Part shown: piece by piece, positions 45 through 16,076 of the stretch
Position numbering within the stretch: the first letter of the stretch is position 1
Layout of the letters: each line of letters starts with the position of its first letter
From: an uncultured Chloroflexia bacterium
GTDB taxonomy: Bacteria; Chloroflexota; Limnocylindria; Limnocylindrales; CSP1-4
Assembly: GCA_963713975.1 (NCBI GenBank)
Contig: OY970218.1
Span: 3,296,001 to 3,360,000, forward strand
Length of the DNA stretch: 64,000 nucleotides
Direction of reading: 5' to 3'
Notes under the pieces: model-generated
The model's input: only the letters and a program-made list of their open reading frames with translations
Database searches by the model: none
What the model was told of the DNA's origin: nothing
Translations under genes and position numbers: made by a program

Positions 45-1221
<1,177 letters not shown>

Positions 1222-1235
<14 letters not shown>

Positions 1236-2466
1236 TGCGATGCTCCGGTTCGGGCGGGACCGGCAGGCCACCGGCGCTGGGGTACAGGGACAGGGGGCCC
1301 TCCTCAGCCTCGACCCCGGCCACGAACCCCTTGAGGTCCGTGTATCCCGCCGCGGGTGCCAACTCGTCGGGCATGTCCTCGGGCGGCGGCGCGGCCACGA
1401 ACCCTGGGCGCTGTGGCCGACCCGCGCGGGCCTCCTCGGCGGTCGGCGGGTTGAAGCAGGCCACGCGGTGCGTGGCCGTGGCCCCGGTCGCGATGACGGC
1501 CGTGCCCTCGACGAGCGGGGTCAGCGCGGGGTTGTCGGTCCAGCACGCCTCCAGCCGCCAGGCGCAGCGGGGTGCGAACGGGCATCCGCTGGGTGCGTTG
1601 CGCATGTCGGGCGGCCGGCCCTCGATCGGGATGAGCGGCTCGCCCTCCCGCTCGTCCACCCGGGGCATCGAGTGCAGGAGGCCCACCGTGTACGGGTGTG
1701 ACGGCTTGTCGAACAGGTCGCCCGTCGGGGCCGTCTCGACGATGAAGCCCGCGTACATCACGTTGATCCGGTCGGTCATCCCGGCCACCACGCCCAGGTC
1801 ATGGGTGATCAGGATCAGCGACGTCCCCGACTCGCTCGTGAGGCGCGAGATCAGCTCGAGCACCTGGGCCTGGATCGTGACATCGAGGGCCGTCGTGGGC
1901 TCGTCCGCGATCATCAGCTTCGGCTCGAGCGCGAGGGCCATGGCGATCATGACCCGCTGCCGCATCCCGCCCGAGAACTGGTGGGGATAGCTCTTGAGGC
2001 GCTTCTCCGCCTGCGGGATCCCGACCATGCCCAGCAGCTCGACGGCGCGCGCCACCGCATCGCTCTTCGAGACCTTCTTGTGTGCCTGGATGGTCTCGAC
2101 CATCTGCTCCTGGACGGTCAGGACCGGGTTGAGGCTGGTCATCGGGTCCTGAAAGATCATCGCGATGTCCCGGCCGCGGATCTCCCGGAGGTCGGACTCG
2201 GCCATGGTGGCGAGGTCGACGCCGTCGAACAGCACGCTCCCGCCCTCGATCCTGCCCGCCGGCTTGGGCAGCAGCCGGATGATGGCGAGGTTGGTCACGC
2301 TCTTGCCGCAGCCGGACTCACCGACGAGGCCCAGGCGCTCCCCGCGGGCCAGCTCGAAGCTGACGCCATTGACCGCGTGGATCGTCCCGTCGTGGGTGCG
2401 GAACCTGACCACGAGGTCGCGGACGTCGAGGAGGGTCGTTCCGCCCTCGCCGCGCGCATCCGTCAT
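1222..2466 (-). CDS. dppD: Peptide ABC transporter ATP-binding subunit (DppD/OppD family)
   Basis: [39 protein letters not shown]...[11 protein letters not shown] overlap with the permease stop at 2463-2466. Confidence 0.93.
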
Positions 2467-3356
2467 CGCTTCATCCTCGGGTCGAGCGACTCGCGCAGGC
2501 CGTCGCCCAGCAGGTTGAACCCCACTGCGGTGATCACGATGGCGAGGCCCGGGAAGAAGATGAGCCACGGGGCCTGGCGCAGGAACTTCGTCGCATCGGT
2601 GAGCATGGTGCCCCACTCGGGCGTACGCGGATCGGGCGGGCCGAGGCCCAGGAAGCCGAGGCCGGCAACGTCGATGATCGCGGTCGCGAGGGCGAGCGTT
2701 GCCGCCACGATCAGGGGCGTCAGCGAGTTGGGCAGCATGTGCCGCAGCAGGATGCGGCCACCTCCCGCTCCGAGCGAGCGCGAGGCCATGATGTAGTCCG
2801 ATTCGCGCAGCGACAGCAGGCTGCCGCGCAGGATGCGGGCGAAGATCGGGACGTTGACCATGGCGACGGCGAACATGATCTGCGGGAGGCCGCGATCCAG
2901 CCAGGCAACGATGCCGATCGCGAGCAGGATGCCCGGGATCGCGAGCATGACATCCACGACGCGCATCAGGACGGAGTCGACCTTGCCGCCGAGGCCTCCC
3001 GCGAGGGCGCCGATCGTGCCGCCGATCAGGACACCCATGACGACCGAGGCGATACCGGCCACGAGGCTCACCTGCGCGCCGTAGATGACGCGGCTGAACT
3101 CGTCGCGGCCCTGGAGGTCCGTACCCATGATGTGGGCCGGGCTGGGGGGCTGGAGCCGGTTCGCCAGCGTGCCCTCCATCGGGTCGTAGGGCGCGATGGC
3201 CGACGCGAACACCGCCGTCAGGATGAACAGGATGATGATCAGTACGCCGACCATGGCCGGCGCGTTCCGCCGCAGGCGGCGGAGGGCGTCACCCCACAGG
3301 CCGCGACTCGCCCGAGCCTCGACTGGACGCCGGACCGGGACCGCAGGTGCAGCCAT
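2463..3356 (-). CDS. dppC: Peptide ABC transporter permease (DppC/OppC family)
   Basis: HIMGTDLQGRD motif, EAA-like loop (YIMASRSLGA...ILLRHMLPN), LGFLGLG, PEWG; multiple hydrophobic helices. Confidence 0.93.
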   Translation of the reverse strand: MAAPAVPVRRPVEARASRGLWGDALRRLRRNAPAMVGVLIIILFILTAVFASAIAPYDPMEGTLANRLQPPSPAHIMGTDLQGRDEFSRVIYGAQVSLVAGIASVVMGVLIGGTIGALAGGLGGKVDSVLMRVVDVMLAIPGILLAIGIVAWLDRGLPQIMFAVAMVNVPIFARILRGSLLSLRESDYIMASRSLGAGGGRILLRHMLPNSLTPLIVAATLALATAIIDVAGLGFLGLGPPDPRTPEWGTMLTDATKFLRQAPWLIFFPGLAIVITAVGFNLLGDGLRESLDPRMKR

Positions 3357-4360
3357 CAGGCGTACCGGATCCGCGGGTTGAGGAAGGCGTACATCACGTC
3401 CACGATCAGGTTCACCACCAGGAAGACGAGCGCGAAGAAGAGGATCGTGTTCTGGACCACGAGGTAGTCGCGGTTGTTGATCGCCTCGACGATGAACCGC
3501 CCGACTCCTCCCCAGGCGAAGACGGTCTCGGTGATGACCGCCCCCGCCAGCAGGCCGCCCACCTGGATCCCCATCACCGTGACCACCGGAAGCCAGGCAT
3601 TGCGCATGACGTGCCGGCTGTTGACCCGCTTCTCGGACAGGCCCTTCGCCCGCGCGGTGCGGACGTGGTCCTCGTTGCTCACGTCGAGCACGGAGGCGCG
3701 GGTGATCCGGGTGATGATCGCCAGCGGGATGGAGCCCAGGGCGATCGCCGGCAGGATGAGGTGCGTGATCCCGTCCCAGAACAGGTCGGGGCGACCCATG
3801 AGCAGCGAGTCGATGAGGACGAAGTTCGTTTGGATCTCGAGATTCGCCCGGGGGTCGATCCGGCCGCCGGCGGGCAGGATCCCGAGCTGGACGGCGAAGA
3901 TGTACTGGAGCGTGAGGCCCAGCACGAACACCGGGATGCTGATGCCCAGGAGCGAGACGATCGTCACGGCACCGTCGGGCCAGCCCTGCGCGTGGCGGGC
4001 CGCGAACCGGCCGAGGGGGATCCCGATGCCGGCGGCGAAGATGATCGCCCCGACCGTCAGCTCGATGGTCGCCGGGAACCGGGTCAGCAGTTCCTTGAGC
4101 AGCGGCTGGTTGTTGATGACGCTGGACCCGAGATCGCCCTGGAACAGGTTCCCGAGGTAGCCCAAGTACTGCTGCCAGAGCGGGTCATCGAGTCCGAGGT
4201 ACTCGCGCATCGCCGCGACGCGCGCTGGTGTCGCGTGCTGGCCGAGGATGGCCGCCGCCGGATCGCCGGGCAGCAGGTGCACGAAGCCGAACAGGATGAT
4301 GGACAGCCCGAACAGGACGGGGATGGCACCGATAAGCCGTCGGGCGATGTACTTGGCCAT
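3356..4360 (-). CDS. dppB: Peptide ABC transporter permease (DppB/OppB family)
   Basis: LPGDPA, GDLGSS, RFPATIEL, TARAKGL EAA loop, TETVFAWGGVG. Confidence 0.93.
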   Translation of the reverse strand: MAKYIARRLIGAIPVLFGLSIILFGFVHLLPGDPAAAILGQHATPARVAAMREYLGLDDPLWQQYLGYLGNLFQGDLGSSVINNQPLLKELLTRFPATIELTVGAIIFAAGIGIPLGRFAARHAQGWPDGAVTIVSLLGISIPVFVLGLTLQYIFAVQLGILPAGGRIDPRANLEIQTNFVLIDSLLMGRPDLFWDGITHLILPAIALGSIPLAIITRITRASVLDVSNEDHVRTARAKGLSEKRVNSRHVMRNAWLPVVTVMGIQVGGLLAGAVITETVFAWGGVGRFIVEAINNRDYLVVQNTILFFALVFLVVNLIVDVMYAFLNPRIRYA

Positions 4361-4481: not shown

Positions 4482-6194
4482 CTACTTGTCGAGCCAGACG
4501 CTCTGGAAGCTCTCGAGGAGTGTCGGGGACGGAATGAAGCCCTTGACGTACGTCGCCGCTGCCGAGGGCGTCTTGCCCGAGGCGATCGGCAGCGCCGGCA
4601 TGTCGGCCAGGATCAGGTCCTGCGCCTTCTCCCAGGCGGCCTGCTGCGCCGACTCTTCGGTCGCGGCGAGCGCGTCCAGCATGGCCTGGTTCATCTCGTC
4701 GTTCTTGTACGCGAACTCGGGGTTCGGGCCGACGGGGTCGCCCCGGTAGCCGAAGTCCGCGGTGTACAGGAAGTTGTCGATCCCCAGCCAGTCGCAGTTC
4801 CAGCCGATGAGCCACATCGGGTACGTTCCCGTGGACTCGGCGGCCAGGTAGTCCGGGCGCCAGGGGGCGGTCTTCGGGTTCGGCTTGAACCCGACGGCCT
4901 CGAGGTCACGCAGGATGGCCTCGAACTCGCCCTTCGGATCGGGCATGTAGGCGCGGCTCACGTCGGACGGATACCAGAAGTCGAACGACAGGTCGGTCAC
5001 GCCGGACTCGGCGATGAGCGCCTTGGCGGCCTCGGGATCGTAAGCCGGGAACGCGAGCTCCTTGGCGAACTTCGTGCCGGGCGGGGCCCAGTTGGAGGGC
5101 ACGACGCCGGCGGCGCCGAAGAATGCGTCGACCATCGCCTGGCGGTTGACGGCGGCGGCGACGGCCTGGCGGATCTTGACGTTGTCGAACGGCTTGTGGG
5201 TCTGGTTCATGGCCAGGATGCCCACGTTGCAGGAGCTGCCGCGATCGATCGCGGCGAGGTTCGGGTCGCTCGCGGCCGCCTCGATGTCGTTGGGCGCGAT
5301 GGCCTGGGCGATGTCGACGTCTCCGGCCTGCAGCGCGTTGAGCGTAGCGGTCGTGTCGGTGATCGGCTTGAACGTGATCTGATCGAGGTACGGGCCGCCG
5401 GCGGCCGCGTTCCAGTAGTCAGGGTTCTTGGTCACGATGACCTGCTGGCCCGGTGTCCACTCCTTGAACACGAAGGGGCCCGTGCCGACCATCGCGGGCG
5501 GCCCGCCGGTCGCGTACGTGTTGTTCGCGAAGTCGGGGGCGCTGGCGTTGCCGGCCTCGAGGGCCGCCGGGCTGGAGATGCCGAACGGCGTCAGCGTCAG
5601 CTGGATCAGGAACGCGGAGTTCGGCGCGTTGAGCGTGACGGCGACCGTCGACGCATCGGGGGCCTCCACCGCCTTGATCGCCGGCGTGATGACCGTGTCG
5701 ATGTAGTAGGTGTAGCCGAGATCGACGTAGGACTGCGGGATGTTCATCCAGCGGTCGAAGTTGAACTTGACGGCAGCCGCATCGAGGGGGGTGCCGTCAT
5801 GGAACTTGACGCCGTCGCGGATGGTGAACGTGTACGTCAGGCCGTCGTCGCTGACCTTCCACTCGGTCGCCAGCGCCGGGACGATCTGGTCGCCGGTGCC
5901 GGGGGCGAGCGTGATCAGCGTCTCCATGACCTGCTGGCCGACGTACGAAGAGTTCGCGTCGTCGATCAGGGCCGTGTCGGTCCGGTTGATGTCGCCGGGA
6001 AGCGCGACGACGAGGGTGCCGCCTTCCGTGATGCCGGCGGCCGGCGCCTCAGTGGCAGGTGCGGCAGTGGCGCCGGGCTCGACGCTCGCCGGAGGTGCTG
6101 CGCTCTCCGGCGCGGTGGTCGCCGTGGACCCACCGCAGGCTGCGAACGCGATCGCCGTAGCAGCGAACAGCGCCCCGAATCGGATACGGGACAT
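4482..6194 (-). CDS. dppA: Family 5 (peptide/nickel) ABC solute-binding lipoprotein, canonical domain order
   Basis: Lipobox FAAC, Ala/Pro/Thr linker, GGTLVVAL, PALATEW...YTFTIRDGVKFHDG, GTGPF. GGAGGAG RBS before ATG 6194. Confidence 0.92.
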   Translation of the reverse strand: MSRIRFGALFAATAIAFAACGGSTATTAPESAAPPASVEPGATAAPATEAPAAGITEGGTLVVALPGDINRTDTALIDDANSSYVGQQVMETLITLAPGTGDQIVPALATEWKVSDDGLTYTFTIRDGVKFHDGTPLDAAAVKFNFDRWMNIPQSYVDLGYTYYIDTVITPAIKAVEAPDASTVAVTLNAPNSAFLIQLTLTPFGISSPAALEAGNASAPDFANNTYATGGPPAMVGTGPFVFKEWTPGQQVIVTKNPDYWNAAAGGPYLDQITFKPITDTTATLNALQAGDVDIAQAIAPNDIEAAASDPNLAAIDRGSSCNVGILAMNQTHKPFDNVKIRQAVAAAVNRQAMVDAFFGAAGVVPSNWAPPGTKFAKELAFPAYDPEAAKALIAESGVTDLSFDFWYPSDVSRAYMPDPKGEFEAILRDLEAVGFKPNPKTAPWRPDYLAAESTGTYPMWLIGWNCDWLGIDNFLYTADFGYRGDPVGPNPEFAYKNDEMNQAMLDALAATEESAQQAAWEKAQDLILADMPALPIASGKTPSAAATYVKGFIPSPTLLESFQSVWLDK

Positions 6195-6488
6195 CGATAC
6201 TCCTCCTCCAGCCGGGTCAGACGACACGAATCGTCAGGCGGGCGGCCCGGCACCGCGGCTCCGCCGTGTGCGGGTGCATGATACTCACCCTACGGCTCAG
6301 TGCCAGCGGAGGTTCGCGCTCGATCGCCGCCTGGCGCGTCCGCCGGCCCGGCGGGCGCCCCGGTCCGGGGAGTCGGTGTAGGCTTCCGGGACGCCACGAC
6401 CAACCCTGGCATCGGGCGCCGGGGGCGTGCAGCCGACCCCCGTACTCCGCCCCCGAACCCCGTATTCCGACCCGGAGCCGCCATCTCC

Positions 6489-8288
6489 ATGACCCCGATC
6501 CGCAGGAGGCTGCCGGCTATCGCGCTCGCGATCCTGGCCGTGGCCGCGTGTGGGAGCGAGCCGGTGCTCACGCCGATCCCATCGGTGGATCCGGCGGCCC
6601 TGGGTGCCACCGCGAAACCGGCGGCCTCCGAGCGCCCGTTCGCCCAGGTGGCGTGGCCGACCTCCGCCAGCGCCTGTGACCTCCCCGACTACGCCGGCCG
6701 CCTGGGCCGGCTCGAGGCCGTCAACGCCCGGACGATCCGGTTCACGCTGTGCGATGCCGATGGGGCGTTCCCCGCCCGTCTCGCCCATCCCGCCCTGGGG
6801 GTCGTCGACTCGGCCACGGTGGACCTCGTGGCGGCCGACCCTGCCTCGGCCCGCCTCGTCGCGGGTGCGGGCGAGTTCCGCGTGGAGGCCTGGGCCGAGG
6901 GTGAGAACGTGCGGCTCGGCCGCGTCCCGAGCAGCACCGCCTCGCCGAGCCCGCCCGCTGCCGGCGTCCCGTCCGGCTCCGCCTCGCCGGTGGCGTCGGG
7001 CGCGCGGCCTGAGGGGCCTGGTTCGCCGCCCGCGACCATCGTGCTCCGCTGGGCCGCGACGTCCGCCGATCGGGCGGCGGCATTGCGCGAGGCCGAGGTG
7101 GACGGCATCGACGCGCCGGCCGCGTCGGACATCGCGGACATGTCGACCCTGCCAGAGATCGTGATCACGCCCCGCCCGGGAACGGCCACGGCCTACCTGG
7201 GGTTCGGGACGGGCCACGGCTTCGGGCAGACGGCGGTCCGGCGCGCGTTCGCCCAGGGGCTCGACTCGGCGGCACTTGCCCGCGACGCCTTCGCTGCCGG
7301 CGCCATCGCGGCCACGCACGTCGCCCCCTGCGAGGTTGCCGGTGGCTGTGCCGGCATGGCCTGGTACGAGTTCAACGGGCCGGCCGGAGCGGCCGCGCTC
7401 GGCCTTGCCGGCTACGACCTCACGGCATCCGTCCCGCTCCGGATCCCCGATGGACCCGTGGCCGGCCTCCCTGATCCAGCGGGGCTGGCGGCGGCCATCC
7501 GCGACCAGCTGCAGGCGAGCCTGGGGGTCACGGCGGAGATCGAGGAGATGCCCGCAGCCGAGCTCGCCACGGCCATTGCCGAGGGAGATCTCGATGGGCT
7601 CTACCTCGGTGGGATCGCGTCGCCCCTCGCGGACGCGTCCGGGTATCTCGAGCCCCTCTTCGGCGCCGACGCGACGGGGACCGCCGTGCAGCGGGCCCGT
7701 GGCGTGACCCGCGCCCTGGGCGATGTCGCCGGGGCCGTCGAGGATGCCGCCCGTCGGGATGCGTTCGGGGCGATCAACGACCGTATCCGGTCGGCCGCGC
7801 CGATCATCCCGCTGGTCCACCCCGGAGCGATGACCGCATACCGGGCCGACGTGTCCCGGGTCGCGATCTCGCCCCTGGGCGTGGATCCGCTGGGCGACTT
7901 CATCGCGGGCGACCGAAGCCAGCTGGTCGTGATGCAGGCCGGGGAGCCGGTCGGCGCCTGGTGTGCCGTCACCACCTCGGTTGAGGCGCTGCAGCTGTGC
8001 GGGCTGGTGACGCCGGGCCTGTTCCGCTTCGCCGGTGCGTCGCTGGTCCCGGTCCCGTCGCTCGCATCACGGTGCGACCCGTCCAAGGACGCAACGGTCT
8101 GGACGTGCCGCCTCCGCAGTGACCTCTCGTTCTCGGACGGCAGGCGCGTGGATGCAGGGGACGTCCTCGCCTCGATGCGGGCCCAGGCGGATGCCGGCAG
8201 CCCGCTCCGCGTCAGCCGGCCGGCGACGACGTTTGCCACCTGGGACGACCTGTTCCGCGGTCCGGTCCCGGCGAACGCCTTGCCCTGA
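6489..8288 (+). CDS. Circularly permuted family 5 ABC solute-binding lipoprotein
   Basis: Lipobox VAAC. Family-5 motifs are present, but the normally N-terminal block (LVVMQAG...PSLASRC...WTCRLRSDLSFSDGRRVDAGDV) lies at the C-terminus. Confidence 0.8.
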   Translation: MTPIRRRLPAIALAILAVAACGSEPVLTPIPSVDPAALGATAKPAASERPFAQVAWPTSASACDLPDYAGRLGRLEAVNARTIRFTLCDADGAFPARLAHPALGVVDSATVDLVAADPASARLVAGAGEFRVEAWAEGENVRLGRVPSSTASPSPPAAGVPSGSASPVASGARPEGPGSPPATIVLRWAATSADRAAALREAEVDGIDAPAASDIADMSTLPEIVITPRPGTATAYLGFGTGHGFGQTAVRRAFAQGLDSAALARDAFAAGAIAATHVAPCEVAGGCAGMAWYEFNGPAGAAALGLAGYDLTASVPLRIPDGPVAGLPDPAGLAAAIRDQLQASLGVTAEIEEMPAAELATAIAEGDLDGLYLGGIASPLADASGYLEPLFGADATGTAVQRARGVTRALGDVAGAVEDAARRDAFGAINDRIRSAAPIIPLVHPGAMTAYRADVSRVAISPLGVDPLGDFIAGDRSQLVVMQAGEPVGAWCAVTTSVEALQLCGLVTPGLFRFAGASLVPVPSLASRCDPSKDATVWTCRLRSDLSFSDGRRVDAGDVLASMRAQADAGSPLRVSRPATTFATWDDLFRGPVPANALP

Positions 8289-8387
8289 CGGCGGCAACGT
8301 CGCCCTGACTTCGCCGGGCGCGGCGTCCGGAGAGCGGTGTGCCCGGGTCATGACCAGCGGCAAGGTCCCGGGCGGATCGCGCCCGGC

Positions 8388-8972
8388 CTACTTGGTCAGC
8401 AGCCGCTGCATCAGGAGTGCCTGGTCCGCGAGCGGGCCGATCAACCGTCGGGCCTCCGCGTAGCGGATCAGCCCGTCCGCCAGCTGCTGGCTGCCGGTGG
8501 TGACCCCGGCGGCGTCGCCGGCGATGAGGGCGAGGTGCAAGGTGGTCGCCCCCGCCAGCATCGCGGGGAACGCCGCCTCGTAGGCTCGGGCGGCCGGTGC
8601 GGTCTCGGGGTACTCGGCGAGGCGCGGGATCTGCGTCTCGAGGCGCTCGATGAGCGTGGCGAGGCCGTCTGCCGCACCAAGCATCGCGTCGAGGTCCTCG
8701 TACGCGGCGGCCGCGCCCAGGTCCGCACCGGCCGCCTGGATCTCCGCGTCCGCCTTCGCCAGGATCATCACGGCCTCAACGATGCCGCCGGGCCAGCGCG
8801 TGGGCGAAGGGGCGGGACTGACATCGCCGGGAGATGGTGGCGCCTGCGACGCCGATGCCGAGGGCGAGCCCGCAGTCGTGGACGGGCTCGCGCCCACGGG
8901 GCTGCATGCCCCCACCAGCGACGCGAGCGCGAGCAGGGCCGCCGCTGCGAACCACGCCCGGAACGTGCCCAT
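8388..8972 (-). CDS. Hypothetical lipoprotein (Ser/Pro-rich linker plus helical domain)
   Basis: Signal peptide with lipobox-like VGAC, low-complexity linker, Ala-rich amphipathic helices. Last gene of the second ABC operon. An alternative GTG start at 8993 overlaps the upstream stop. Confidence 0.7.
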   Translation of the reverse strand: MGTFRAWFAAAALLALASLVGACSPVGASPSTTAGSPSASASQAPPSPGDVSPAPSPTRWPGGIVEAVMILAKADAEIQAAGADLGAAAAYEDLDAMLGAADGLATLIERLETQIPRLAEYPETAPAARAYEAAFPAMLAGATTLHLALIAGDAAGVTTGSQQLADGLIRYAEARRLIGPLADQALLMQRLLTK

Positions 8973-8989
8973 CTGACCGGGACCCGGGG

Positions 8990-10681
8990 TCACTCGACGT
9001 CGATGCCCGACGTGACGACCGTGGCCGTCTCGGCGGCGACCTCCGCGACCACCGTCTGGCTGATGTCCTCGGCGAAGTGGCAGGCGACCCGGTGGCCGGC
9101 CTCGGTGAAGGTCCGGAGCTCGGGCACCTCGGTCGTGCATTGCTCGGGATTGCCCAGGCGCTCGCGCAGCCAGCACCGCGTGTGGAAGCGGCACCCGGAC
9201 GGCGGGGCGGCCGGCGACGGCACATCCCCACGCAGGACGAGGCGCTTCTTCCGGCGCCGGGGATCCGCCTCCGGGATCGCGGACAGCAGCGCCACCGTGT
9301 ACGGGTGCCGCGGGTCGGCGTACAGCTGTTCCACGGTGCCGACCTCGACCAGCCTGCCCAGGTACATGACCCCGACGCGGTCCGAGAAGTACTGCACGAC
9401 GGACAGGTTGTGGCTGATGAACAGGTAGGTGAGGTTGAGGTCCCGCTTGAGGTCCAGCAGCAGGTTGAGCACCTGGCTCTGGATCGACACGTCGAGCGCG
9501 GACACCGGCTCGTCCGCGACGATGAAGTCGGGGCCGAGCGCAAGGGCACGCGCGACGCCGATGCGCTGCCGCTGGCCGCCCGAGAACTCGTGCGGGTAGC
9601 GGCGCGTGTACTCGCGCCGGAGGCCGACGAGCTCGAGGGCGTCCTCCACTCGCTTGTCCCGCGCCTTCCGATCCGTCAGCCCCTGCGAGAGCAGGCCCTC
9701 GCCGATGATGTCGCTGATCGGCATCCGCGGATTGAGCGACCCGAACGGGTCCTGGAAGATGATCTGCATGCGGCGGCGAAGCGGCCGCATGTCCTCGGGA
9801 TCCACGTCCGCCAGCTCGTAGCCGTCGAAGACGACCCTTCCGTCCGTGGACGGCGTCAGCTGGATGAGGGTCCGCCCCAGGGTGGTCTTGCCGCAGCCCG
9901 ACTCACCCACGAGGGCGAAGGTCTCGCCGGGCATGATCTCGAAGTCAACGCCGTCCACCGCGTAGACGGTGCCGATCTGGCGGCGGAGCACGCCGCCATA
10001 GATCGGGAAGTGCTTCTTGAGGTTCTGGACCACCACCAGCGGCGCGGTCGCCGCAGCGGGGACAGCGCGCGCGGCGGCATCGCCGGCCAGGATGACACCG
10101 GCGGCAGCTCCGGCGGCTCCGGACGGCGCGGCGTCGGGTGTCACGGGCTCGGACACGACGGTCAGCGGTGCATCGATCGGACGCGCACCCGTCTCCTCCG
10201 GCTTCAGGCGGCGCTCGCGCGTGCCGTCGAACCAGCTCGCGGCGCGGGTGAAGTGCCAGCCCGAGAAGACCGCGAGCACGAACGGCACCAGCAGCCCCAG
10301 CTGGGCGAAGAACACGGAGTTCGGGTCTGTGATCCGATCGCCCATGGTAACCATCAGGTAGCCAAGGACGATCGAGAGCACCCCATCGGTCAGGAGGACC
10401 AGCGCCAGGGCCCAACGCTGGCGGGTCGCCGTGAGCCGCACGACGGCCACGATCACGACCGCCAGCGGGACCACGATCAGGGCCGTGGGCGGCAACACGT
10501 CCAGGACGCCCTTGACCCCGATGAGGATCCCCAGCACGAGGAGCACCAGGAGAACGATGCCGTAGGCCGCGATGCTCAGGAGCAGGGCCCTGCCGTTGCG
10601 GATGCCGACCGGCGGCCGCCGGCGCAGGCGATGGCGGATCTGGAGCTCGGCGGCGGAGGCTGCGTCGGTCGTGGTCGTCAT
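8990..10681 (-). CDS. oppF: OppF-family ABC ATPase with N-terminal ~4-TM membrane domain
   Basis: [25 protein letters not shown] and HPY/Cys domain, preceded in frame by about 210 aa with four hydrophobic segments. ATGA overlap with the oppD stop. Confidence 0.88.
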
Positions 10682-11799
10682 CCGTTGCCGAGCCTGTCCG
10701 GTGCGCCGGTCATGCGCCGGCCCGTCGTCATGTTCTGCTCGTGCCGTGCGACCGCGCGATCCAGCCGCCCGCCCGCCTCGGCAAGGTGGAGGTGGCAGCG
10801 GGCCAGCCGACCGGACGCACCGGCCGGGTACAGCTCGGGTGGCACCTCGCGGCAAGTCTCCCAGCGATACGGGCAGCGCGGCTCGAACCGGCAGTTCGGC
10901 GGCAGGTGGAACGGCGAGGGCACGACGCCCGCGATGGCCGACAGCCGCCCGCCGCGCTTCTCGACGGTCGGGATCGACTCGATCAGGCCCATCGTGTACG
11001 GCATCCGGGGCTCGATCAGGACCTCTTCCACCGTCCCCTTCTCCACGACCTGTCCCGCATACATGACGATCACGTTGTCGACCATCTCCGCGACCACGCC
11101 GAGGTCGTGCGTGATCAGCACCAGCGCGGCACCCGTCCGCTGCTGGATGACCTTGAGCAGCTCCAGGATCTGCGCCTGGACCGTCACGTCTAGCGCCGTG
11201 GACGGTTCGTCCGCGATCAGGAGCTTGGGCTCGCAGGAGAGCGCCATCGCGATCATCACGCGCTGCCGCATCCCACCCGAGAGCTCGTGCGGGTACTGCT
11301 TGGCGCGCCGCTCGGGACTCGGGATGCCCACGAGGCGCAGCATCTCCACGGCGCGATCGCGTGACTCGCGAGCGTTGACGTCGAGGTGCAGCTCCACCTG
11401 CTCGGCGATCTGGTCGCCCACGGAGAACACGGGGTTCAGGGCGGTCAGCGGCTCCTGGAAGATCATCGCCATGTCGTTGCCGCGGATCCGGCGCATGTCG
11501 GGCTCCGGGAGCGAGAGCACCTCCCGGCCATCGAACCAGATCTCGCTGCCCTCGCCGATCTCGGCCGGGGGGATGTCGAGCAGACGCATGATCGTGAGCG
11601 CGGTCACGCTCTTGCCGGAGCCTGACTCACCGACGATGCCCAGGGTCTGGCCCTTGTCGAGCGAGAAGCTGACACCGTCCACCGCCGGGACGACGCCGTC
11701 CATCACCTTGAAGTAGGTCCGCAGGTTGCGGACGTCCAGCAGGGTGTCCTCGGGGGGCGGGGCCCCGAGCCCGGGGCGGACGGTCGAGGTCTCGCTCAT
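10678..11799 (-). CDS. oppD: Peptide ABC transporter ATP-binding subunit (OppD family)
   Basis: [33 protein letters not shown]...C...ARCH. Confidence 0.93.
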
Positions 11800-12758
11800 G
11801 CCTTCGACCTCGGGTCGAACGCGTCACGCAATCCATCGCCGACGAAGTTGACCGCGAGGACGGTGATGATGATCGCGAGCCCCGGGAACAGCGGCCACCA
11901 CCAGTTGCCGAGACCGATGAACTGCAACCCGCCCGACAGGATATTGCCCCAGGTGGGCGAGGTTGGATCCACGCCGAACCCGAGGTAGCTCACGAACGCC
12001 TCCGCGATGATGTTGGCCGCGATGATGAGCGACGCCGCCACCACGATCGGGCTGAAGGCGTTGGGCAGGATGTGCCGGAAGATGATCCTGCGGTCCCTGA
12101 CGCCCGCCGCCGTCGCCGCCTCCACGAACTCCCGCTCCCGGATCGAGAGGAACAGGCTCCGTGTCAGGCGGCTGACGCCCATCCAGGACAGCAGGCCGAA
12201 GATGATGATGATCATCGAGACCGTGCCCCGGCCCAGGAAGTTGGCCGCGACCAGGATCACGAACAGGGTCGGCAGGCTGAGCATGACGTCGACCAGGCGC
12301 ATCAGGGCATTGTCGACGACGCCCCCGGCGAATCCGGCGATGGAGCCCACGATCGTGCCGATCAGGACCCCGATGGCCATGCTGGAGAAGCCGATCAGCA
12401 GGGACGTCCGGGCGCCGTTGACGACCAGGGTCAGGACGTCACGCTGGAGGCCGCCGGTCTCGCCCATCGGGTGCTGCAGGGACGGGGGCCGGCCCGCCTG
12501 GACAAACTCGTCCGGCTGCGGGATATCGGTGAAGCTGAAGGGCATCAGCATCGGGCCCACGACCGCCGTGAGCAGCAGCGCGAGGATGATGCCCAGGCCG
12601 ACCAGCGCCAGCTTGTGGCGGCGGAACTTGCGCCAGGCAAGCTGCCACTGGTTGAGGGATTGGAGCCCGACCTCGTAGTCCTCTGCGGCTGACGGATCAG
12701 GATCGACGATCTCGGTGACGTCGATGAGGCTCGAGGGGTGCTGGGGGGTCTGGGTCAT
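11796..12758 (-). CDS. oppC: Peptide ABC transporter permease (OppC family)
   Basis: WRKFRRHKLA N-terminus, EREFVEAATAAG...IIFRHILPN EAA loop, PTWG. Confidence 0.92.
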   Translation of the reverse strand: MTQTPQHPSSLIDVTEIVDPDPSAAEDYEVGLQSLNQWQLAWRKFRRHKLALVGLGIILALLLTAVVGPMLMPFSFTDIPQPDEFVQAGRPPSLQHPMGETGGLQRDVLTLVVNGARTSLLIGFSSMAIGVLIGTIVGSIAGFAGGVVDNALMRLVDVMLSLPTLFVILVAANFLGRGTVSMIIIIFGLLSWMGVSRLTRSLFLSIREREFVEAATAAGVRDRRIIFRHILPNAFSPIVVAASLIIAANIIAEAFVSYLGFGVDPTSPTWGNILSGGLQFIGLGNWWWPLFPGLAIIITVLAVNFVGDGLRDAFDPRSKA

Positions 12759-12766
12759 CGGGGCGC

Positions 12767-13888
12767 TCAGTACTTGATCCGGGGATCGATGACCCCGTAC
12801 ATGATGTCCGCCAGCAGGTTCGCCATCACGACCATGATCGCGGTCACCAGCAGGACGCCCATCAGGATCGGGTAGTCGAACCCGCGGGTGGCGTCGATCG
12901 TCAGCTTCCCCACGCCGGGCCACGAGAAGATCGTCTCGGTCACGATTGCCCCGGTGAACAGGAACGGGATCTCGAGGCCGATGTTCGTGATGACCGGCAG
13001 CAGCGCATTGCGCAGCGCGTGCTTGAAGTTGACGGCGCGCTCATGCAGGCCCTTGGCCTTCGCCGTGCGCACGTAGTCCTGACCCAACGACTCCAGCATG
13101 CTCGCCCGGACGAAGCGGCTGTCGCCCGCGATGTTCACCACCACGAGCGTGATGACCGGCAGGATGAGGTGCTTGCCGATATCCATGATCGCCTCGACCG
13201 GATTGCTGGCGAAGTACGTCCAGTAGGCGTCGCTGCCGAAGGCGGGCGAGATGCGGGTCTCAGTCATGCCGCTGGCCGGGAGGATGTTCAGGCCGGGACC
13301 GCTGAAGAGGAAGATAAGCATCATGCCCAGCCAGAATGTGGGCATGGCAAAGCCCACATAGGCGAACACCGTGGACACGTTGTCGAACAGCGAGTAGCGG
13401 TGGATGGCGGCATACACGCCGATCAGGATGGCGAAGGTGAGCCAGATAACCAGCGCCACCCCGGCCAGGATGATCGTCGGCACGGCGGCCCGTGCGATGC
13501 GGTCCGCCACCGCCTCGCCGGAGTTGATCGAATAGCCGAGATCACCGTGCAGCACGCCGTTCGAGGCGCCGCTCAGGAAGGTCGGCAGGAAGTTGGGGAG
13601 GCCCGTCGGGCCGATGAACGCGGCCGGCACCGGCAGCGAGCCGAGCCAGACGCCCTCGGTGTCGGGGTTGCAGAAGCCCATCCAGCGGCAGTACTGGATC
13701 GGGATCGGCTGGTCGAGGCCCCAGGCCTTGACGAACGCGTCCTTCTGCGTCTGGGTCATGCGGGGGTTGTTCGCGAACTTGGCCTGCGGTCCGCCGGGCG
13801 CCGCCAGCAGGATTCCGTACACGACGACCGTGATCCCGAACAGGACGGGGATCGCCTGGATCAAGCGGCGGATCACGAATTTTGTCAT
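12767..13888 (-). CDS. oppB: Peptide ABC transporter permease (OppB family)
   Basis: GLDQPIPIQY, GDLGYS, DYVRTAKAKGL, TETIFSWPGVG. Confidence 0.92.
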   Translation of the reverse strand: MTKFVIRRLIQAIPVLFGITVVVYGILLAAPGGPQAKFANNPRMTQTQKDAFVKAWGLDQPIPIQYCRWMGFCNPDTEGVWLGSLPVPAAFIGPTGLPNFLPTFLSGASNGVLHGDLGYSINSGEAVADRIARAAVPTIILAGVALVIWLTFAILIGVYAAIHRYSLFDNVSTVFAYVGFAMPTFWLGMMLIFLFSGPGLNILPASGMTETRISPAFGSDAYWTYFASNPVEAIMDIGKHLILPVITLVVVNIAGDSRFVRASMLESLGQDYVRTAKAKGLHERAVNFKHALRNALLPVITNIGLEIPFLFTGAIVTETIFSWPGVGKLTIDATRGFDYPILMGVLLVTAIMVVMANLLADIMYGVIDPRIKY

Positions 13889-14060: not shown

Positions 14061-15926
14061 TCAGCTCTTGGCGTACCAGTCCTCGCCGTTCCAGGTCGAG
14101 CCGACCTGGGTGCCGTTGGCAAAGAAGTTGCCAGCGGTCGGCGCGGCCAGCTCCACGTTCTTGCGGTAGTAGAGCGGGATCTCGACGGTCTGCTCGACGT
14201 AGACCTTCTGGAAGGTCGCCATCGCGTCCTTGATGAGGCTGAAGTCCACGTTGTTCTTCACGCCGTCAAGGGCCGTGTCGAGGTCCGGGTTGTTGACCTG
14301 GGCGTCGTTGGCGCCCTCGGGCCGGTTCTGGCTGCTGTGATAGCTGAAGTAGTTGCCCAGCGGATCGATCGACGAGCTGAACGCATGCTCGGCAAGGTCG
14401 AAGTTGCTGCGGGCGAGGATGCAGGGGGTATCGACGGTGCCCTCGTTGTAGTCGGCGAAGATCGCCGACGGGTCAACGGCGTTGATCACCGAATCGACGC
14501 CCACGGCCTTCAGCCAGGAACTGACGAGGGCCAGGGTGTCCTGACGGACCTGGCGGGTGGTGGTGCAGAGCTCGATCTTTGCAACGACGCCGTCCTTCTC
14601 GACGATGCCATCGCCATCCGAGTCAGCCCAGCCGCCGTCGGCCAGGATCTGCTTGGCCTTCTCGGGGTCATAGGTCGTCGCGGTCTGGTCCGCATAGAAC
14701 CATGCCGACGGGCTGATGTTGGTGTTCGCGATCTGGGCGTTGCCGCCGAGAAGACGAGTATTGATCTCGTCCTTGTTGATCGCGTAGGCGACGGCCTCGC
14801 GCATGGCCGGGTCGGCCATCGGGCAGCCATTGCCGCGATCGGTGACGGCTGCGTTCTTGGAGCAGCCGCCGGTGCCCTTGGTGGCGTCGACCGCCGTGAT
14901 CGGCGACCAGTTCGGGCGCATGAACTCGTACAGGAGAGCCGGGATGGCGCTGACCTGCTCGCCGAGATCCTGGACCTTCGGGATGTCCGAGTCCTGGAGG
15001 TCGAAGGCAACGTCGATCTCGCCACCGCGGAAGCCCGCGATCATGGCGTCGGGATCGCCGTACCACTTGAAGATGATGCCGTCGAGGTTGGCGGCCTTGC
15101 CGGTGCGCGGGTTCTGGAAGTTGTCGTTGCGGGCGAGCCGGAGCTCGGCCTGCGGGGTGACGGACTCGTACTTGAACGGACCCGGGACCGGCATCTTGGC
15201 GATCTCGTCGGGCCGGAAGCCCGCGCCGTTGACCTGGTCGGCGACCGGGATCGCCCCGAGGTAGTGGCGGGGAAGCGGCGCGATCATGAGGGTCAGGTAG
15301 CCCTCGTAGATCTTGCCGAAGTGCCAGATCATGTCCGTGTCCGAGGCGCACTCGAACTTGGTCACGTCCTCCCAGCCGGCGAGGATCACGCCGACGTTGT
15401 CCGGGCTCGTGACCCACTCGTAGGCGTACAGGAAGTCGTCGCACGTGAGCGGCTCGCCGTCGGACCACTTGAGGCCGTCGCGGATCTTCCAGCTGACGGT
15501 CATCGCGTCGCCGTTCTGGCCGACCGTGACGCCACCGTTGTCGGTGGTCGGGATCGGGTCAGCCGCGAGCTGCGGGATGTACTTGAAGTCGTGGCTGATC
15601 GACAGCAGGCTGTGCCACACGAGCGAGGCGACGTTGGCCTCGGTGACCTGGCCCAGGTAGTACGGGTTGAACTGGGTGGCTTCCTGCCAGTCGCCAATGA
15701 TCGTGGTGCCGCCGGTGGCGACGTCCGTCTCCGGGTTGTAGACCGTCCCGAACAGGTCGACGGTCTCGGCCGGGGCTTCGGTGGCCGGGGCTTCGGTGGC
15801 CGGGGCTTCGGTGGCCGGGGCCACAGTGGCCGGGGCTTCGGTGGCCGGTGCCGGGGTGGTGCTGGTGCCGCCGCAGGCTGCGACCAGAATGGCCGCACCC
15901 GCGAACAGGCCCACCAGTTTTCGCAT
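14061..15926 (-). CDS. oppA: Family 5 peptide ABC solute-binding lipoprotein (OppA/AppA-like)
   Basis: Lipobox VAAC, WKIRDGLKWSDGEPLT, PGPFKY, YDPEKAKQILADGGW. GGAGGAG RBS before ATG 15926. Confidence 0.92.
   Translation of the reverse strand: MRKLVGLFAGAAILVAACGGTSTTPAPATEAPATVAPATEAPATEAPATEAPAETVDLFGTVYNPETDVATGGTTIIGDWQEATQFNPYYLGQVTEANVASLVWHSLLSISHDFKYIPQLAADPIPTTDNGGVTVGQNGDAMTVSWKIRDGLKWSDGEPLTCDDFLYAYEWVTSPDNVGVILAGWEDVTKFECASDTDMIWHFGKIYEGYLTLMIAPLPRHYLGAIPVADQVNGAGFRPDEIAKMPVPGPFKYESVTPQAELRLARNDNFQNPRTGKAANLDGIIFKWYGDPDAMIAGFRGGEIDVAFDLQDSDIPKVQDLGEQVSAIPALLYEFMRPNWSPITAVDATKGTGGCSKNAAVTDRGNGCPMADPAMREAVAYAINKDEINTRLLGGNAQIANTNISPSAWFYADQTATTYDPEKAKQILADGGWADSDGDGIVEKDGVVAKIELCTTTRQVRQDTLALVSSWLKAVGVDSVINAVDPSAIFADYNEGTVDTPCILARSNFDLAEHAFSSSIDPLGNYFSYHSSQNRPEGANDAQVNNPDLDTALDGVKNNVDFSLIKDAMATFQKVYVEQTVEIPLYYRKNVELAAPTAGNFFANGTQVGSTWNGEDWYAKS
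15768..15855 (-). repeat. 15-bp tandem coding repeat (APATE units) in the SBP linker
   Basis: About six copies of GTGGCCGGGGCTTCG (plus strand), some variant. Confidence 0.9.
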
Positions 15927-16076
15927 CAAGGCTCCTCCGAGTTGCGCTAGGGGTTTCCTGGACTCTGCTCCCTTGGCAGGCAGGATGGCCGGGTCTCCCG
16001 GACGGGGGTCCGGGCCACCGGAACCGGGCGTGCGCATGCGCGCACGCCGCGGCGGCCAGCCGGCTGCTCTCTCGCA

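Follow-up and report, generated by a model that had tools for sequence, protein, structure and literature searches.

Family 5 solute-binding proteins (SBPs) are among the most studied receptors of ATP-binding cassette (ABC) transporters and, to our knowledge, the order of their segments has so far been treated as fixed. A gene on the plus strand at 6489–8288 of a 64,000-nt stretch of an uncultured Chloroflexia bacterium (contig OY970218.1; the whole stretch is referred to here as the window) raises the question whether its product, P0003, is a naturally circularly permuted member of this family, and, if so, how it arose and what it serves for. The original prediction, made from the letters alone, had placed the usual first blocks of the protein at its C-terminus, and had proposed to scan P0003 with the hidden Markov model (HMM) of SBP_bac_5, to compare it with the neighbouring SBP P0002 and Escherichia coli DppA, and to survey homologues for the same breakpoint. 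Taken as a whole, our favoured reading, i.e., a permutant that originated by tandem fusion and acts as an accessory binding protein for a divergently encoded importer, has in our estimation a probability of about 0.6, while its parts deserve different degrees of confidence, as set out below.

The open reading frame (ORF) of P0003 is open from 6300 to 8288 in a window with a G+C content of about 70%, and the ATG at 6489, which agrees with the starts of the homologues and has GGAG about 11 nt 5' of it, leads to a protein of 599 aa. Comparison with SBP_bac_5 (PF00496; gathering score of 32.4 bits) resulted in a match of residues 74–395 to profile positions 67–365 of 368 (116.9 bits, E 1.4e-33), well above the threshold of this cluster C family, while the last 132 aa alone matched the beginning of the same profile (residues 521–573 to positions 2–54, 40.9 bits, E 1.8e-10). 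Instead of the colinear order, the protein thus displays the body first, followed by the old C-terminus and finally the N-module. BLASTP against P0002 likewise revealed two offset diagonals (522–559 to 116–153, and 75–343 to 187–444), and among the NCBIfam models, the C-terminal parts of SapA, DppA, and GsiB matched residues 184–465 and the N-terminal parts of NikA and OppA residues 521–569, all of them far under the cut-offs (DppA with 29.7 bits against a cut-off of 1005). Both the permuted order and the position of the break claimed in the original prediction were borne out. P0003 is homologous to the SBP_bac_5 family, but a topological variant of it.

A profile built from 34 aligned homologues was then compared with the sequences in the PDB, in which it matched HbpA (3tpa) twice with an E-value of 6.9e-47, namely with profile positions 72–442 on chain residues 131–506 and positions 482–557 on chain residues 39–120. 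The same two segments in the same inverted order were found with GbpA (3m8u) and E. coli DppA (1dpp). The canonical HbpA chain is covered once by the P0003 profile, with no segment absent or doubled, and the alignment places the break near HbpA residues 121–130, inside the extra domain II. With no more than about 50 residues separating the lipobox from the body, there is no N-module at the N-terminus, so that P0003 represents a permutation and not a partial duplication. The chain of P0003 starts halfway through domain II, immediately ahead of the strand that corresponds to HbpA residue ~131, then reaches the normal C-terminus and enters, without a linker, the first beta-strand and the N-module (HbpA ~39–120), and ends at the place where it began. 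The body (residues 70–442) comprises the second part of domain II, the rest of domain I, and domain III, and at the junction the old C-terminus passes directly into the old first beta-strand (residues 478–482). Overall, we consider it nearly certain that the permutation is real, conserved, and homologous throughout.

An AlphaFold2 model of P0003 based on the alignment of 34 sequences reached a mean predicted local distance difference test (pLDDT) value of 76 and a predicted template modelling (pTM) score of 0.77. Values above 90 were reached from about residue 50 onwards, and values below 50 were found at residues 5–42, 150–178, and 447–477; the low-confidence stretches comprise the signal peptide and linker (1–42), a Pro/Ser-rich insert (150–178), residues 202–230, and the junction (447–477), which is followed in the model by a strand at residues 478–482. 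Foldseek with this model against the PDB resulted in 169 matches at E<=0.001, and all 47 of the 47 matches listed were binding proteins of the family 5 type, the best being YliB/GsiB (1uqw, E 4.6e-14, TM 0.48/0.57), with HbpA and DppA also among the best. These alignments covered only about 350–410 columns, as a sequential aligner would give on a permutant. The model thus points to a three-domain fold like that of DppA and OppA. In addition, the body (43–446) and the C-terminal module (471–599) were folded as separate chains alongside three controls, which led to a score of 0.89 as against 0.00 for the best control; the mark used here was reached by 116 of 157 solved complexes and by 2 of 215 mismatched pairs. 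Contact agreement in these runs was at least 87% and the pLDDT of the partner at least 87. Strand 536–540 paired with 82–87, which by sequence equivalence with P0002 are neighbours in the domain II sheet, and residues 476–496, including the old first strand, touched residues 181–190 and 203–209 of domain I. In the model, the C-terminal module thus appears to dock back into the sheets of domains I and II.

In regard to its sequence, P0003 is a predicted lipoprotein, as a hydrophobic stretch ends in the lipobox-like V-A-A-C21, and 90% or more of the 34 aligned homologues share this cysteine. A twin arginine is present in the signal peptide of most but not all homologues, a few of them being similar to a Tat motif when the alignment is read by eye. 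Export via the twin-arginine translocation (Tat) pathway was considered based on this pair and set aside, since the pair is not conserved in the family and no TAT model matched in the Pfam and NCBIfam scans. Residues 22–69 have no counterpart in an HMM of canonical SBPs, and W56, P57, and C63 in this segment are invariant or nearly so. Altogether, nine cysteines were found, C21 of the lipobox and C63, C88, C281, C287, C492, C504, C529, and C540. The latter eight are all invariant in the alignment of 34 homologues and stand as near-neighbour pairs in the sequence, in line with the four neighbouring pairs pointed out in the original prediction; C88, C281, and C287 belong to the body, and the pairs C492/C504 and C529/C540 to the N-module. 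In total, 59 columns of the alignment are invariant, with all eight cysteines among them, and so are D475, R476, and Q478 at the junction. The erosion of motifs that had been claimed is seen in the body as well, where P0003 displays GAGEF (126–130) and P0002 GTGPF. A Pro/Ser/Ala-rich insert (residues 147–183) sits between two strands of the body; it varies in length and is present in only some of the homologues, and some relatives of P0003 harbor long Pro/Thr/Ser-rich tails at their C-terminus.

A join near 7815–7931 is also the expected outcome of an assembly error between two tandem SBP genes, and the junction residues 447–477 are modelled with low confidence, so that an artefact might be suspected: sequence wrongly joined in the assembly, fragments of two genes fused by a frameshift, or an otherwise complete SBP that gained an extra N-module by partial duplication. 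In order to survey homologues, an HMM was built from 75 canonical SBPs encoded in the same loci and run on 60 target-type ORFs called in 68 sources. The body (HMM ~205–610) was followed by the N-module (HMM ~90–190) in 57 of these 60 ORFs, while the other three (L019, L027, and L058) showed one recognisable part only. A junction profile of 211 positions, built from 22 sequences, was compared with 1.84 billion representatives and matched 39833 of them at E<=0.001, of which 3590 reached E<=1e-10 and 188 reached E<=1e-30; each of the best 150 matches crossed the junction in one stretch. As assemblies independent of each other share the breakpoint, it does not stem from an assembly error. Apart from the recurrence of the junction (57 of 60 ORFs, at least 150 representative clusters), the invariance of D475, R476, and Q478, the lack of a second N-module ahead of the body (about 50 residues only), and a total length equal to that of one SBP speak against an artefact, which we regard as extremely improbable.

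A protein search with P0003 yielded 134 matches among 8000 scored candidates; at least 120 homologues (those listed) were 44–69% identical, mostly with at least 90% query coverage, and the few with names belong to Limnocylindrales and Chloroflexota metagenome-assembled genomes. A scan of one genome per species revealed 67 loci, all in Chloroflexota. Beyond the original prediction, the permuted architecture is thus a trait of a Chloroflexota clade and not a one-off, and permuted clusters number somewhere between about 150 and a few thousand.

Less diverged members of this clade were identified at six loci (L062–L067; named by NCBI as Anaerolineae, generic Chloroflexia, or unclassified Chloroflexota), encoding proteins that are 28–30% identical to P0003 and have the same breakpoint. 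Their Pfam scores amount to 240–308 bits as compared to 117 for P0003, and they retain the motifs GTGP(Y/F), R.Y, and GW..DYPD. P0003 and these proteins have the pairs C63/C88 and C492/C504 in common, and the other two pairs also occur in L062 and L063. In all six cases, permease genes follow on the same strand, so that permuted SBPs can head ordinary ABC operons; permutation by itself does not mean a loss of transport, a point on which our analysis goes further than the original prediction. A search with the L066 protein led to at least 120 relatives (those listed), all at least 64% identical, from Anaerolineae and others, which carry the name 'peptide ABC transporter substrate-binding protein'. 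Located at the new N-terminus and behind the old first strand, respectively, C63/C88 and C492/C504 are invariant in all permuted members compared and probably form disulfides that hold the new ends.

With respect to the origin of the clade, protein P0182 (1202 aa) consists of two complete SBP5 copies head-to-tail (HMM 56–594 and 98–590), after which about 170 aa follow as a tail. Permuted proteins from L062 and L064–L067 are colinear with its residues 185/224 to 661/669, i.e., over about 450 residues at 30–37% identity, and the alignment crosses the inner junction of the two copies. The clade would thus have arisen once, by head-to-tail fusion of two SBP genes and subsequent loss of the outer parts, and we judge such a single origin by tandem fusion and trimming to be likely. 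A further protein, P0137 (575 aa), was 50–64% identical to the L062–L067 proteins and displayed yet another order (HMM 434–621, then 124–437) behind a signal peptide; represented by a single sequence, it would stem either from another permutation event or from an error in assembly.

As regards ligand binding, profile alignment to DppA (1dpp, mature numbering) showed V324, G326, and P379 of P0003 at the positions of R355, Y357, and D408, so that the residues tested for a peptide-end site of the DppA type are not present, and DppA D411, corresponding to D382 of P0003, is the sole invariant equivalent among these positions. We take R355 and D408 of DppA to hold the carboxyl and amino ends of the bound peptide. 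In L062–L067, R, Y, and D are kept at the three positions. The different ligand suggested in the original prediction would fit this loss, which is confined to the P0003 subfamily.

Compared to the nearest genome (L001), ten flanking genes are 84–99% identical, whereas P0003 and the product of a small lipoprotein gene, lp10, reach 66% and 67%, respectively. Nei-Gojobori estimates of the non-synonymous (dN) and synonymous (dS) rates for this one genome pair (window 6489–9194 against L001 8001–10623 as the compared segments) resulted in a dN of 0.216, a dS of 0.84, and a dN/dS of 0.26 for the P0003 gene, in 0.251, 0.55, and 0.46 for lp10, and in 0.010–0.050, 0.27–0.46, and 0.02–0.16 for seven flanking genes. 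P0003 is under purifying selection, yet evolves much faster than its neighbours. The G+C content is 0.75–0.77 over 6000–9000 and 0.68 in the flanks, and the local hot spot of protein divergence formed by P0003 and lp10 coincides with this raised G+C. A decaying orphan paralogue, i.e., a permuted gene that drifts after a canonical SBP took over the operon, could account for the high dN of P0003, the eroded motifs, the shift in G+C (0.75 against 0.68), and the variable low-complexity inserts. We nevertheless hold this to be very improbable, as the frame is intact in the 120 listed homologues with identities down to 44%, the 59 invariant columns include the eight cysteines, dN/dS amounts to 0.26, and synteny is conserved.

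What P0003 may be used for is suggested by its surroundings (Table 1). The canonical paralogue is indeed its neighbour, as had been noted, and we add that it lies on the minus strand, where it is the first gene of the divergent operon; it starts from the ATG behind GGAGGAGGAG in an ORF open to 6227, matched Pfam with 308.7 bits in one stretch (residues 114–492 to profile positions 1–362), and matched the NCBIfam models GsiB and DppA under their cut-offs. The P0003 gene is flanked by two ABC operons, both on the opposite strand, so that no co-oriented permease is encoded next to it, as the original prediction had it. In a tree of permeases, those of L062–L067 grouped with permeases of the operons that lie divergently upstream, including the one at 3356–4360 of the window (27 rows, Shimodaira–Hasegawa-like support of 98). 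The divergent permease is thus, among the permeases compared, the closest to those that share operons with less diverged permuted SBPs, and based on this grouping, from a quick tree with local sampling, the divergent transporter is named as the likely partner. P0003 would be a lipid-anchored accessory binding protein, transcribed from a promoter of its own within the intergenic region that its gene shares with the divergent operon; its ligand, probably something different from an ordinary free peptide, would be handed over to the Opp/Dpp-type permease encoded at 45–4360. We put forward this role as a tentative proposal at a little below even odds.

The same permuted fold could also act without feeding any transporter: outside the cytoplasm, P0003 could sense a ligand or serve as an accessory factor, and signal to a membrane partner or modulate it, as is presumed for the fused members of the clade. 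A Pfam scan of 25 longer representatives among the best 150 revealed 19 fusions with the permuted domain at the C-terminus, namely to a Ser/Thr kinase (Pkinase; P0145, P0160, P0163, P0164, P0176, and P0224), to TIR (P0147 and P0178), to Peptidase_C14 and FHA, i.e., of a caspase-FHA type (P0167), to a double zinc ribbon (P0236), and to DUF11 or Big_9 (two proteins). The remaining chains have two binding domains, with Peripla_BP_6 (n=4) or SBP_bac_3 (n=3) first and the permuted SBP5 second (P0189, P0193, P0220, and P0132, and P0170, P0228, and P0261). All ten fusions with domains of a cytoplasmic type (six kinase, two TIR, one caspase-FHA, and one zinc-ribbon protein) displayed exactly one hydrophobic window between this domain and the permuted SBP, a predicted one-helix layout that is that of single-pass receptors. 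By analogy, the fusion to kinase, TIR, and caspase-FHA domains via one helix lends indirect support to the sensory role considered in the original prediction. In its widest form, this account would see the permuted SBP5 as a Chloroflexota-wide extracytoplasmic ligand-sensing module, repeatedly recruited, and the orphan, fast-evolving P0003 subfamily with its four putative disulfides would not be transport proteins but stand-alone sensors or accessory receptors whose ligand is not a peptide; the N-terminus relocated in domain II would ease placement behind a membrane helix or another binding domain. Moreover, the P0003 gene is monocistronic between operons that each have their own SBP, the peptide-end residues of the DppA type are lost, the Pfam score is 117 bits as against 240–308 in the operon-linked relatives, and the protein evolves fast. 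Yet genes for signalling proteins, be it kinases, TIR proteins, or others, were seen neither beside the gene in the window nor among the recurring neighbours at 60 loci, which are solely ABC importers, CN-hydrolase, NAD synthase, RsmI, and the small lipoprotein, and the fused forms fall in the less diverged part of the clade, outside the P0003 subfamily. Both as a function of P0003 and in its widest form, we rank sensing without transport second behind the accessory binding role, with a fairly low probability.

Several observations weigh against the favoured reading of a tandem-fusion permutant that serves the divergent importer. The P0003 gene stands alone in its transcription unit and each neighbouring operon has its own canonical SBP, while 21 of 48 related loci, i.e., about half, lack a divergent ABC operon upstream. 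The permease tree was a midpoint-rooted FastTree whose 71 DppB-type permeases were all drawn from these loci. The non-synonymous rate of P0003 is 4 to 20 times that of its neighbours, which fits relaxed constraint or a surface role. In the breakpoint survey, 8 of the 68 sources were without a called target ORF (L026, L044, L051, L055, L057, L059, L060, and L061). P0182 has no cysteine pairs and shares only 30–37% identity with the permuted proteins; lacking the pairs, it is to be taken as a model of the intermediate and not as the ancestor. Finally, the structural support is a list of model contacts that may go back to solved SBPs known to the model. As these contacts also occur inside the single chain of solved SBPs, the split-chain result shows likeness to the canonical fold, which was the point asked.

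Table 1. Location of the P0003 gene, its parts, and the adjoining operons in the window.
Feature	Position	Strand	Basis
Coding sequence of P0003, permuted family 5 solute-binding lipoprotein (599 aa + stop)	6489–8288	+	ORF, translation, Pfam SBP_bac_5, homologues
Predicted signal peptide with lipobox-like V-A-A-C21 end	6489–6551	+	Sequence; C21 conservation
Linker and new N-terminal segment with C63 (residues 22–69)	6552–6695	+	Low-confidence linker
Body (residues 70–442)	6696–7814	+	Equivalent to HbpA chain 131–506, Pfam positions 67–365
Pro/Ser/Ala-rich insert in body (residues 147–183)	6927–7037	+	Gapped in most alignment rows; pLDDT
Junction (residues 443–481)	7815–7931	+	Alignments A1, A2, A3; invariant residues; pLDDT
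Relocated N-module (residues 482–599)	7932–8285	+	Equivalent to HbpA chain 39–120, Pfam positions 2–54
Intergenic region shared with P0002 gene	6195–6488	.	Sequence
P0002, canonical colinear family 5 SBP lipoprotein, first gene of divergent operon	4482–6194	−	Pfam
Divergent Opp/Dpp-type importer	45–4360	−	Pfam
Divergent permeases	3356–4360, 2463–3356	−	Pfam
Divergent ATPases	1222–2616, 45–1271	−	Pfam
lp10, small lipoprotein gene, convergent with P0003 gene	8388–9194	−	tblastn
Second Opp/Dpp-type operon, convergent with P0003 gene	8990–16037	−	Pfam; synteny
SBP of second operon	14061–16037	−	Pfam
Permeases of second operon	12767–13888, 11796–12923	−	Pfam
ATPases of second operon	10678–11799, 8990–10855	−	Pfam

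In the intergenic region between P0002 and P0003, one weak sigma-70-like site was found on the minus strand (6306–6278; one found as against 0.2 expected), while no promoter-like site was found there for the plus strand. An Rfam scan of 5900–9300 gave no match, and a terminator scan of 6100–9100 found none. The gene lp10 belongs to no known family. Its start is probably near 9000, which would lead to a protein of about 200 aa with a lipobox of the L-V-A-A-C-G type, and the gene abuts the stop of the ATPase gene. Nine lp10 homologues from related loci matched the window at 8391–8918 or up to 9194 in tblastn and hold the same place in these nine loci; the homologue in L004 had no Pfam match. The ATPase ORF at 8990–10855 encodes 621 aa with ABC_tran only from residue 301 and overlaps the ATPase ORF at 10678–11799 by 177 nt, so it has either a start far downstream or a long N-terminal extension.

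ORFs in the related loci were chosen by a rule based on G+C by codon position. The ATPase gene of the convergent ABC operon is next downstream in 43 of the 47 loci with enough flank, in seven of them after a small lipoprotein gene, while upstream a divergent ABC operon was found in 25 of 48 loci and CN-hydrolase, NAD synthase, or RsmI in 21. In this tally, the ORF choice wrongly took 8834–11716 (plus strand) instead of the two ATPase genes revealed by Pfam, which put the window itself in the 'C-' class. CN-hydrolase and NAD-synthase neighbours are also located upstream in L062 and L063. In 22 loci (L008, L010, L014, L015, L019, L021, L024, L030, and others), the convergent operon displays the unusual order permease C, SBP, permease B, ATPase, ATPase, and permease B of these operons forms a separate clade with a long branch.

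As to its wider meaning, this clade is a clean case for the route of duplication and trimming, since its junction is clearly homologous, a tandem-fused relative still exists, and there is a putative second breakpoint. The SBP5 fold accepts new ends in domain II, which is useful for the design of biosensors. Under the current annotation, 'ABC transporter substrate-binding protein', a topological subclass goes unnoticed, which also provides the outer domain of membrane proteins of the kinase, TIR, and caspase types. The window itself holds an orphan surface lipoprotein that evolves fast and probably binds something other than an ordinary peptide. Altogether, the finding is of interest for the fields of binding proteins, protein topology, and sensor design, and opens no long-standing question. 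Searches of full-text literature, with subscription-only papers outside their coverage, found no report of a permuted protein of family 5 or cluster C, and the remaining matches appear to deal with engineered sensors or unrelated topics, so that the permuted order is apparently new for the SBP_bac_5 family.

Among known systems, DppA, GsiB (YliB), and HbpA/GbpA gave the best profile and fold matches to P0003 (3tpa, 3m8u, 1dpp, and 1uqw). P0003 shares with this group all segments of the fold, each present once, as well as the predicted nature of a lipoprotein or secreted protein and a gene located near permeases of the Opp/Dpp type. It differs from them by the permuted order with the break near HbpA 121–130, by four extra cysteine pairs, and by the absence of a co-oriented permease gene, and from DppA in particular by V324, G326, and P379 in place of R355, Y357, and D408. 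The permuted SBP5 proteins of L062–L067, at 28–30% identity, agree with P0003 in breakpoint, junction, and the pairs C63/C88 and C492/C504; unlike the P0003 gene, theirs is the first gene of a permease operon, and some proteins of this type carry a signal of the signal-peptidase-I type instead of a lipobox.

The closest precedent for the permutation as such is TpMglB-2 (Tp0684) of Treponema pallidum, which PMC4990184 describes as a naturally permuted cluster B glucose-binding lipoprotein with the proposed designation 'Type Ic / Cluster Bc', and for which its authors raise a link between permutation and tethering. As in P0003, N-terminal strands of one lobe have moved to the C-terminus, and tethered lipoprotein forms occur (PMC4990184). 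However, TpMglB-2 is a sugar-binding protein of cluster B with another breakpoint and without sequence relation to P0003, and its permuted part is poorly conserved, whereas that of P0003 is clearly homologous (E 1.8e-10 alone). Fused receptor forms and a tandem intermediate, as found in the P0003 clade, are not mentioned for TpMglB-2 in the passages of PMC4990184 considered here. All sequence and fold matches of P0003 belong to cluster C, which places it outside Cluster Bc. TpMglB-2 is thus an analogue of P0003 and not a fellow member.

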